Assembly (NCBI GenBank): GCA_039591655.1
Contig: JBDHDE010000056.1
Location: forward strand, 1 to 18,745
DNA: 18,745 bases
Direction: 5' to 3'
Origin: Gemmatimonadota bacterium
GTDB taxonomy: Bacteria; Gemmatimonadota; Gemmatimonadetes; Gemmatimonadales; GWC2-71-9
Shown here: piece by piece, positions 1,972 through 15,325 of the stretch
Numbering within the stretch: the first letter of the stretch is position 1
How the letters are laid out: every line of letters starts with the position of its first letter
Position numbers and translations under genes: made by a program
Notes under the pieces: model-generated
Seen by the model: the letters and a program-made list of their open reading frames with translations, nothing else
What the model was told of the DNA's origin: nothing
Database searches by the model: none

Positions 1972-2171
1972 ACTCGGAGCCCCCAGAGATGGTCGGCGCC
2001 AGAGTCAAAGCTACGCCCTCCAAGGGAAGGGGGGCGTGACACGCCTCACCAGCGCCGGGAAACCGTGCCTTCCGCCCTCTCGCCGCACCCTTGCAACTCT
2101 CCCACCGGGGTGAAGCTTTAGACGGAAGACGCGCACGGTCTGCTCGACCCACGACCTCCCGGAGGTGCGCC

Positions 2172-2924
2172 ATGTCCGGTCGCTTCTTTGTCTTCCTGTT
2201 CGCGCTCAGCCTCACGGTTTCGCTCGTTACCGTCGGATGCGACAGCGGCGGCGGCACCGGTCCGACCATTGTGACGGTGCTGGTCACGCCGGATTCCGCC
2301 GAGGTCCTGGTGGGCGCCACGCAGCAGTACACTGCGCGGGCCCTCAACGCATCGGGCAACCCGATCGGCGGTGTGAGCTTCACCTGGAGCTCGGCGGATG
2401 CGAACGTAGCAACCGTCAACACCACGACCGGGCTCGCTGAGGGCGTATTGGCGGGCGTCACCGATATTCGGGCCACTGCAAGCGGAGTCATCGGCTCCGG
2501 CAGGATCAGCGTCGTTCCCACCGCGAACCCCGACCCGCCGGACGACCAGTTCCTCGACAGCAACGGTGACGGGATCGACGGGGACATAGACAAGGCCATC
2601 TTCGTCGCCACCACAGGCGACGACGCCGATCCCGGCACACGAGCTGCCCCCAAGCGCACCATCGGCGCGGCGATCACCGAGGCGGCCGGCGATGCCCAGA
2701 AGACCGAGGTGTACGTCTCCGCCGGGACCTACATGGAAACGGTGCAGCTCACCGCCGGCGTGAGCGTCTACGGCGGGTACAACGCGGCGGCGGGCTGGGA
2801 GCGCTCCGCCACGAACGTCGCGACGGTGCAGGGCGACACCACCGCGGTGACAGGTGACGGGATCGCACAGCAGACCACCGTGGACCGCCTGACCATCGCA
2901 TCTACCTGGCCAACTCCAGCATGA
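2172..2924 (+). CDS. N-terminal part of a surface lipoprotein: lipobox, Big_2 Ig-like domain, acidic DxNxDG motif, DUF1565-like start of a beta-helix
   Basis: GGAGGT at 2161-2166 before ATG 2172 (the track start at 2091 is too early); hydrophobic signal ending TVG-C; VTPDSAEV...FTWSSADANVATV Big_2 pattern; IFVATTGDDADPGTRAAPKRTIGAAI motif. Confidence 0.8.
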   Translation: MSGRFFVFLFALSLTVSLVTVGCDSGGGTGPTIVTVLVTPDSAEVLVGATQQYTARALNASGNPIGGVSFTWSSADANVATVNTTTGLAEGVLAGVTDIRATASGVIGSGRISVVPTANPDPPDDQFLDSNGDGIDGDIDKAIFVATTGDDADPGTRAAPKRTIGAAITEAAGDAQKTEVYVSAGTYMETVQLTAGVSVYGGYNAAAGWERSATNVATVQGDTTAVTGDGIAQQTTVDRLTIASTWPTPA

Positions 2925-3898
2925 TCACGCTGCGCAACCTGACGGTCACCGCCGGGAACGGTGCGGCGGGGACGGCTGGGAGCGCGGGCCCGGCGGGCAC
3001 CAGCGGCGGGAACGGTGTTCCCGGCGTGGGAACCAGTGGCGGCGCCGGCGGGAGCGGCGGCGCAGCAGCCCTACTGGGGGGGAGCGGGGGGGATGGCGGC
3101 ATCCCCCCCCCGGGGTCGAGTGGAGCCCCCGGAGGGCTGGGTGGAGGCGCGAGCCCCGGCGCCGGAGGCGCAGGCGGCGCCGGCGTTGTGGCGCCCTGCC
3201 CCGGCGGGATCGCCTTCGACGGAGCGCCTGGCGGTAACGGCGGGGCCGGATCAGCCGGTACACCTGGGAGCGGCGGCAACGGCACCGGCCTCGTCGTCAG
3301 CGGCTTCTGGCAGGGGAGCGCCGGGGCCGGCGGAACGGACGGGACCGACGGCAGCGGGGGCGGGGGCGGCGGCGGCGGCGGACTCGGCCCCTACGATCCT
3401 CCGATATTCTGTCCCGACCCGCCCGACGGAGGCGGTGGCGGTGGTGGCGGCGGCGGCGGCGAGGCCGGCCGCGCCGGCGGAGGGGGCGGCGGCGGCGGCG
3501 GCTCGTTCGCGCTGTTCGCGCACAACTCCAGCGTCACCGTCGAACTCAGCACACTGACCGCCGGTGACGGTGGGGCCGGGGGAGCCGGCGCCGACGGTGG
3601 AGTGGGCGGAACAGGCGGACCGGGCGGCGCCGGCGCCTCGGGTCTGTTCCAGCCAACCTCGGGCCAGGGCGGTAACGGCGGCACCGGGGGCACAGGGAGT
3701 GTCGGAGGGAACGGCGGTCCCGGCGGCGGCGCGGGGGGCGGCGTGTCGTATGCCGCCTACGCATCGGGCACCTCGACGGTGACGCTGGATGCGCAGAGCA
3801 ACACCAACCTCACCGCTGGCACCGGCGGCTCCGGAGGTGCGGCGGCGAGCGGCGGGAACGCCGGGCAGCAGGGCCAGAGCGGCCAGAAGAACTTCTAG
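2921..3898 (+). CDS. Gly-rich (PGRS-like) C-terminal part of the same surface protein
   Basis: Long GGxGGxG runs separated by three similar beta-strand units; no signal peptide of its own; frame is open and repeat-like upstream of the ATG (IYLANSS from 2900). Confidence 0.75.
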   Translation: MITLRNLTVTAGNGAAGTAGSAGPAGTSGGNGVPGVGTSGGAGGSGGAAALLGGSGGDGGIPPPGSSGAPGGLGGGASPGAGGAGGAGVVAPCPGGIAFDGAPGGNGGAGSAGTPGSGGNGTGLVVSGFWQGSAGAGGTDGTDGSGGGGGGGGGLGPYDPPIFCPDPPDGGGGGGGGGGGEAGRAGGGGGGGGGSFALFAHNSSVTVELSTLTAGDGGAGGAGADGGVGGTGGPGGAGASGLFQPTSGQGGNGGTGGTGSVGGNGGPGGGAGGGVSYAAYASGTSTVTLDAQSNTNLTAGTGGSGGAAASGGNAGQQGQSGQKNF

Positions 3899-14950: not shown

Positions 14951-15067
14951 GTCTCGCCTCGCATGCGCCGCCGCAGTCAGCCGGTAGCGGCGCGTATTGA
15001 AGGGAGTAGGGCGTCGGTCAGGGCGGCGCCGTGAGGACGGTCACCGAGCACACAGATGCGGGGCCCG

Positions 15068-15113
15068 AAGACAGAACCGCGCCGTCGGCACCGAACAACC
15101 GACGACGCGGCCC
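15068..15113 (-). terminator. Intrinsic terminator, minus strand
   Basis: Minus strand CCGCGTCGTCGG-loop-CCGACGGCGCGG followed by TTCTGTCTT; the one irregular pair is G-U on minus but A-C on plus. Confidence 0.7.
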
Positions 15114-15185
15114 ATGACCTGCGCAACCTGGAGCGATCGCCGTGCGGCGCTCGATCAGAGGCGCAGATCGCGATTCGGTCCTGGA

Positions 15186-15248
15186 TCAGCTACCGATACG
15201 GCGATCGCTTGCCCATACCAGGTTGCGCTCCGGTTTATTACTGGACAA
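15186..15248 (-). CDS. Candidate small peptide MSSNKPERNLVWASDRRIGS (20 aa)
   Basis: TTG start 7 nt after AGGAGG within AGGAGGTGATCCA; TGA at 15188-15186. Translation unproven. Confidence 0.4.
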   Translation of the reverse strand: MSSNKPERNLVWASDRRIGS

Positions 15249-15296
15249 TGGATCACCTCCTCTCTACGGGTTCACGGATCGGGCGTGGACGCCTAG

Positions 15297-15325
15297 ATAG
15301 TGGTGACTTCCGGTCGTTCGGGCAA
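15297..15325 (-). promoter_or_regulatory. Sigma70-like promoter for the small RNA
   Basis: TTGCCC (15325-15320)-17 nt-CACTAT (15302-15297). Confidence 0.45.

Follow-up and report, generated by a model that had tools for sequence, protein, structure and literature searches.

A probable rre-type small mRNA gene with two predicted alternative folds in Gemmatimonadota

The window analyzed here is a stretch of 18,745 nucleotides (contig JBDHDE010000056.1 of assembly GCA_039591655.1; genome G000) from a Gemmatimonadota bacterium. An element on the minus strand was found between the divergent gene dinB (15343, PF00817) and a gene for an M50 peptidase/DMP19 fusion (14950-12752, minus strand), which lies downstream of the element on the same strand. 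The element has a copy number of one in this genome, which rules out a repeat element. Elsewhere in the window, two overlapping frames on the plus strand (2091-3898) encode a lipoprotein-like protein of 277 aa and a Gly-rich protein of 325 aa, which may be one split surface protein.

The promoter TTGCCC-17-CACTAT, which an earlier note on this DNA had proposed for the minus strand, was identified at 15325-15297. The predicted −35 box TTGCCC (15320-15325) and the predicted −10 box CACTAT (15297-15302) are separated by a spacer of 17 nt, and the −10 sequence is TACTAT or TACAAT in relatives. The promoter of the element did not pass a strict sigma-70 promoter scan. A promoter-like pattern was found upstream of 27 of 48 dereplicated homologues. 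Control windows, which are mostly coding, had it in 14 of 1289 cases. Judging from the promoter spacing, transcription would start at about position 15290, resulting in a predicted transcript of about 225 nt (15067-15290) between promoter and terminator. Only 18 nt separate the −35 box from the start codon of dinB on the opposite strand, therefore the promoters of the element and of dinB must overlap. Locus L007 is arranged alike.

The earlier note's 13-nt "super-SD" corresponds to the Shine-Dalgarno core AGGAGGTGATCCA at 15261-15249 (minus strand), which forms 13 Watson-Crick pairs with the 16S tail of the family. The extended Shine-Dalgarno sequence (15249-15265, minus strand) reaches 17 pairs including one G·U. 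The tail was taken from family loci; the 16S rRNA gene of the genome itself is unassembled. Among 30 loci of the family that match the pattern of the 16S tail, one of them supplied by genome G234, 27 have the sequence ...CACCUCCUUUCU. The duplex takes in nearly the whole free 16S tail and ranked first in strength among the 41,432 candidate sites of the genome. For the homologues, duplexes of 13 to 19 pairs were determined when wobbles were counted, and at least 16 perfect pairs were present in 6 of 70.

The Shine-Dalgarno sequence is directly followed by the UUG-started frame of 20 codons with a TGA stop (15248-15186, minus strand) that had been reported before. It encodes the peptide MSSNKPERNLVWASDRRIGS, and among homologues the open frame is conserved while the amino acids drift. 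In the −1 frame an early TAA stop is located at 15238-15240 (minus strand), and it recurs among homologues. Of 48 dereplicated copies from Gemmatimonadota, 40 have a −1-frame stop within 21 nt of the start (14 expected), in 8 position/codon variants, whereas 5 have a +1-frame stop within this distance (11.5 expected). For the TTG types the −1 frame opens with an overlapping AUU. The −1-frame stop is absent from the 11-codon genus and is not general in Alphaproteobacteria.

The long hairpin of about 108 nt described in the earlier note was confirmed at 15228-15121, with its perfect stems of 11 bp and 12 bp. The outer stem is formed by 15218-15228 and 15121-15131, the inner stem by 15198-15209 and 15132-15143 (all minus strand). 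Two further motifs lie within the frame, UGGGCAA (15209-15215), which is a bulge in this fold, and GAUCGCC (15200-15206), an internal anti-Shine-Dalgarno sequence. The 3′ strand of the inner stem is a Shine-Dalgarno mimic and would sequester the latter. The folding energy of the region was calculated as −113.6 kcal/mol (z −3.88), and none of 200 shuffled sequences was equally stable. The hairpin is followed by a terminator-like hairpin (15113-15074) with a U-tail (15067-15113 in total, minus strand). The terminator stem suggested previously was thus present, but the U-rich tail that had been thought to fix the strand is weak, and a scan gave one site compared to 0.4 expected. Since the tail is weak, the strand call rests on the promoter, the Shine-Dalgarno sequence and the homologues. 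The terminator loop (15090-15097, minus strand) keeps UUCGG across close homologues despite the covarying stem.

BLAST searches of relatives resulted in matches in 34 of 101, some of which were weak chance matches; a weak match in G023 was excluded from use. The pattern GGAGGTGATCYANTG was present in 91 of 301 genomes of the phylum, and the reversed control gave 0 matches. Of its 93 places 70 were retrieved. Among 83 distinct pattern matches in the loci compared, 70 go on with TC and have frames of 11 to 25 codons, and the other 13, apparently chance or unrelated matches, were dropped. With the best 16S-tail duplex of its genome and a pattern missing from the reversed control, the element is beyond chance. 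A sequence-only profile of 36 homologues matched 82 of 141 family genomes (67 at E≤1.3e-13), and close homologues were found as a single copy per genome in 67 of the 141. The profile search detected no element in 59 of the 141 family genomes (about 40%), three of which belong to the same genus. These homologues are related, so that their counts are not independent. The unpublished genome G132 contributes one 11-codon copy (L047) and one row each to the pattern and profile counts; no conclusion rests on the unpublished genomes G132, G234 and G023.

In a larger genome collection, the binding-site pattern is estimated to occur in about 5100 stretches, based on 2 of 64 parts. The 120 named records comprise 12 from Gemmatimonadota, 101 from Alphaproteobacteria or from Proteobacteria without further specification, and 7 others. 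When 100 of these 120 were compared with the profile, six full-length matches (54 to 80 bits) were obtained, and the remaining records matched little outside the binding site. Since the full-length matches were all from Gemmatimonadota, the family was placed in this phylum. The pattern outside both main groups is represented by L188, L239, L195, L250 and L255, namely two gammaproteobacterial records with frames of 25 to 26 codons, an incomplete Planctomycetaceae record, a Prochlorococcus record and a Streptomyces frame of 51 residues, Cys/Ser-rich and RiPP-precursor-like. Two Azospirillum loci (L228, L253) have the same binding site before frames of 59 to 60 residues with a signal-peptide-like start and no micro-frame. 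At L086 (G136:C1:392450-393450) a CRISPR-like repeat array was found, one spacer of which contains an extended Shine-Dalgarno sequence followed by GTG. Viral contigs gave 35 pattern matches, none of them like the 20-codon type by translation. Five resemble the alphaproteobacterial rre RNAs discussed below (L142, L144, L161, L165 and L169, with RreB-like and CC2171-like frames), and these are possibly host DNA beside proviruses.

For the analysis of base pairing, the long hairpin is referred to as the open fold. In 20 close homologues, 15 of 29 pairs of the open fold and terminator showed compensatory changes and 92% of the cells were paired, a result obtained in 0 of 500 shuffles and compared to at most 50% in slid controls. 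Compensatory changes were identified for 7 of 13 pairs of the outer stem and for 8 of 12 pairs of the terminator. These counts refer to an anchored alignment; RNAalifold, which was run unanchored, missed the inner stem through a register shift. This covariation supports the earlier note's reading of a discrete structured micro-mRNA, as do the conservation of the element and its varied neighbours.

A second structure, which the earlier note missed, was predicted by folding the growing transcript of the window copy. From +51 to +107, GAUCGCC would pair with GGUGAUC of the Shine-Dalgarno sequence (15257-15251) and UGGGCAA with the region around the start codon, so that the binding site and the start codon are both masked. 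The cost of opening the binding site in the window copy was up to 11.5 kcal/mol in the nascent RNA and about 4 kcal/mol at full length; the median of 48 homologues shifts less, from 10.9 to about 8.4. At full length the open fold is favoured by 4.5-7 kcal/mol in the window copy and by a median of 3.25 kcal/mol in 36 homologues. The masked pair had a probability above 0.5 in 48 of 63 nascent folds compared to 12 of 63 full-length folds. The terminator is kept in both folds, and an antiterminator was not predicted.

The masked register contains 13 of 13 pairs, which was reached at any register by 2 of 5000 shuffles. Its 7-pair helix was intact in 39 of 39 homologues found with the pattern and in 36 of 36 found with the profile and outside the model, a count from which six loci belonging to other types, one duplicate and two loci lacking a match were omitted. 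Selecting homologues by motif and profile favours intact helices. Changes within the masked helix keep wobble pairing, and Ser2 is changed to Pro in 4 homologues with preservation of the start helix, whereas the two positions that have no partner in the masked fold differ in 14 of 36. One core pair of the start helix is broken in L099. No compensatory pair (0) was found for the masked fold, in which both sides are nearly invariant, each being under another constraint. The anti-Shine-Dalgarno duplex alone was no stronger than in shuffled sequences for the window copy (p 0.44), and it exceeded them at p≤0.1 in only half of the loci from Gemmatimonadota (24 of 48) and in 51 of 88 loci from Alphaproteobacteria.

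The earlier note did not recognise a known RNA class in the element, a view that is in substance mistaken, since its design is that of the small mRNAs rreB of Bradyrhizobiaceae and rreR of Rhodobacterales (Hahn et al., RNA Biol 14:1353, PMC5711450). In the parts of that paper considered here, these RNAs are described for Alphaproteobacteria only, with a complementarity to 16S rRNA of 16-17 nt, a GTG start and an unknown function; rreB binds to the 30S subunit, is weakly translated and undergoes a decay that depends on the start codon (PMC5711450). Like them, the element would be an orphan small transcript which, as read from the sequence, has its own promoter and terminator. Its Shine-Dalgarno sequence is likewise extended through GAUCCA straight to a non-AUG start, followed by a short clade-conserved frame (here 20 codons). 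Masking of the 3′ part of the Shine-Dalgarno sequence and of the start codon by the RNA itself is predicted as well, here as an alternative or nascent fold with no compensatory changes, and RreB-type loci also have GAUCGCC within the frame.

The element differs from rre in its phylum, its unrelated peptide, its longer hairpin and the separate helix that would mask the start codon. It forms 13 perfect pairs (17 with one G·U) instead of at least 16, and the duplex ends at the base before TTG, so that the first base of the UUG is not paired with the 16S rRNA; in GTG-type homologues of family f6, the start does lie inside the duplex. Common descent with the alphaproteobacterial rre is not established, because profile R1 matched alphaproteobacterial loci only over the binding site (at most 29 bits) compared to 54-80 bits for the six Gemmatimonadota records.

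The Rfam search suggested in the earlier note gave 0 matches at gathering score. A sub-threshold hit was RF01867 (CC2171, a Caulobacter sRNA), to which the window scored 19.5 bits (E 0.044) over the 5′ motif, compared to a gathering cut-off of 75. The same 5′ motif (extended Shine-Dalgarno sequence, NUG, UC) is found in CC2171, as are a long stem beginning near codon 3 and a terminator, but CC2171 is listed by Rfam as non-coding. None of 41 relatives passed the cut-off (0/41), the best of them reaching 36.5 bits. In a test of 18 loci in all, 5 of the 10 alphaproteobacterial rre-type loci reached the CC2171 gathering score, which points to CC2171 as the Rfam model of one rre class. CC2171 has been validated by Northern blot in Methylorubrum (bioRxiv 10.1101/2022.01.24.477521), and one covarying pair was added for it in Rfam 15 (PMC11701678). 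Since two strict features of rre and the CC2171 cut-off were not reached, the element was filed as an rre variant. By its features it would be a Gemmatimonadota variant that works like rre, not a strict member, and we consider it very probable that it is a real RNA gene of the rre type. The literature searched on CC2171, the motif, rre and Gemmatimonad sRNAs, which covers few subscription papers, contained no report of the element in Gemmatimonadota, and among the matches listed for the motif itself all were apparently 16S primers or unrelated.

The frame was found to be 11-25 codons long in 48 of 48 dereplicated homologues, with 0.24 expected per sequence. Hahn et al. regarded RreB and RreR as weakly translated mRNAs, and in the same way the peptide of 20 residues could be the functional product of the element. 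The start, the open frame and the position of the stop are kept, with all three stop codons (TGA, TAG and TAA) in use, most length differences within group A are divisible by three, and an RreB-EGFP fusion is produced (PMC5711450). However, the codon-conservation check proposed before showed an open frame that is kept but amino acids that drift. For the 20-codon set (31 sequences) pN/pS was 0.99 (bootstrap 0.71-1.43 on 14 of them), a value near 1 that could also come from RNA structure fixing synonymous sites, compared to 0.27 for 20 codons of the adjacent protease gene (19 sequences). The values were 0.61-0.93 for the 14-, 21- and 11-codon classes of Gemmatimonadota, and 1.27, 0.78 and 0.89 for the RreB, RreR and CC2171 types, respectively. 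The peptides range between 11 and 25 residues and are unrelated in sequence between clades. In contrast, the degenerate codons of the conserved residues A13-R16 are nearly invariant. The reading frame of GAUCGC differs in the 11- and 14-codon classes. It also differs in L034 and L103, in which loss of 1 nt has put the conserved motif into another frame but left the RNA motif in place. Protein-level selection on the peptide was looked for in codon use and pN/pS and was not seen, and a functional peptide is therefore regarded as unlikely. Kept frames, a pN/pS of about 1, nearly invariant codons and a motif that occurs in more than one reading frame together suggest that translation is maintained although its product drifts.

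Based on these results, a free-standing mini-mRNA of the rre type is proposed, which would dock on the 30S subunit and in which translation of the short frame acts as a fold switch and not as a source of peptide. We give this model an even chance. Points against it are the lack of compensatory changes in the masked fold, an open stem that begins anywhere between +7 and +25 and a GGGC of the bulge whose bases are all without a partner in no more than 33 of 67 open folds. The RNA would dock through its 13-17-pair duplex with the 16S tail. During synthesis, GAUCGCC and UGGGCAA within the frame are predicted by folding to cover the Shine-Dalgarno sequence and the start codon, until the completed 3′ arm captures GAUCGCC and the binding site opens. 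By analogy with the rreB experiments, the open form would hold the 30S subunit tightly and initiate rarely. An elongating ribosome would melt the 5′ arm of the hairpin. The stop codon is located 18 nt past GAUCGC in 53 of 67 homologues, a distance that we take to match roughly how far a terminating ribosome extends in the 5′ direction, given its footprint size. At the stop codon, 18 nt beyond GAUCGCC, the 5′ arm would thus be clear of the ribosome and could refold onto the binding site, whereby the RNA would shut itself, be released and be degraded. The abundance of the RNA, or the extent to which ribosomes occupy it, would then be a measure of the frequency with which initiation complexes go on to elongation.

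Alternatively, the RNA could serve in storage or hibernation, holding spare 30S subunits or shielding the 16S tail under stress, for which a duplex with nearly the whole free tail would be suited. A UUG start combined with a long duplex favours holding over elongation. The same has been described for a GUG start with a long duplex, and rreB co-sediments with the 30S subunit (PMC5711450). Against this, rreB is far scarcer than ribosomes and its overexpression had no growth effect (PMC5711450). Furthermore, HPF/RaiA-family genes were found in 135 of 141 family genomes including that of the window (G234 and G132 being one row each in this count), and for that reason the element does not replace HPF in its family. 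Storage is accordingly judged improbable.

The invariant stretches of the element might also indicate a trans-acting RNA or a protein-binding scaffold, in which translation would expose or conceal an active surface formed by the bulge, the 3′ arm or the conserved loops. The invariant bulge, the leader GCCC (15281-15284, minus strand) and the conserved terminator loop are more than one hairpin needs. In the 20-codon class the GCCC hardly varies, whereas the 11-codon class has mostly lost it along with the GGGC of the bulge. A pseudoknot between the two is possible, but flank covariation for it was absent (19 of 36 paired compared to 17.9 in shuffled sequences, p 0.39). Self-pairing accounts for the invariant stretches and the apical regions differ widely among clades, both of which make a trans-acting role a quite unlikely explanation.

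Leader-peptide attenuators of the trpL type contain a short frame that overlaps alternative helices, and the passage of the ribosome decides on the fold. The element resembles them in that its frame overlaps alternative helices between which a ribosome would choose, so that it could attenuate read-through into the M50 peptidase/DMP19 fusion gene (14950-12752); its frame overlaps the hairpin preceding the terminator, the U-tail is weak and the downstream gene is on the same strand. On the other hand, it has neither a regulatory codon run nor a fixed downstream operon, and mutually exclusive terminator and antiterminator structures before a conserved operon were not found, the terminator being present in both predicted folds. 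The downstream genes are unrelated across genera: 24 of 63 called proteins were scanned, comprising 7 CAAX proteases, 5 DsbA-like proteins whose genes are convergent, 2 DapF and 10 other or unassigned proteins. Upstream, kdtA is often the divergent gene, and dinB recurs in one congener. Attenuation is thus very unlikely. A type I toxin mRNA silenced by its own fold, for which a small frame with a sequestered ribosome-binding site as in the element is typical, hardly comes into consideration, since the peptide is hydrophilic, as the earlier note had rightly objected, and drifts (pN/pS 0.99) instead of being hydrophobic and under protein-level selection, the chromosomal copy is single and a scan saw no antisense promoter.

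The switch model may extend beyond Gemmatimonadota. The function of the rre class has been elusive, and its experimental account in the literature searched is that of Hahn et al. (PMC5711450). Two testable points are offered by the homologues: the peptide is apparently unselected although translation is kept, and the frame contains a strand able to mask the binding site of the RNA itself. An elusive function is thereby given a specific switch model, which is open to tests in cultured Alphaproteobacteria. Generalized, rre RNAs would be single-use, translation-gated switches acting on the ribosome, in which the finished RNA clamps the 16S tail of a 30S subunit, a rare translation event frees an internal anti-Shine-Dalgarno strand that detaches the RNA from the tail and locks it, and the peptide is a by-product. 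This generalization is tentative and rather doubtful at present. If true, it would mean that a dedicated RNA gauge or timer for translation initiation is carried by thousands of species from two or more phyla.
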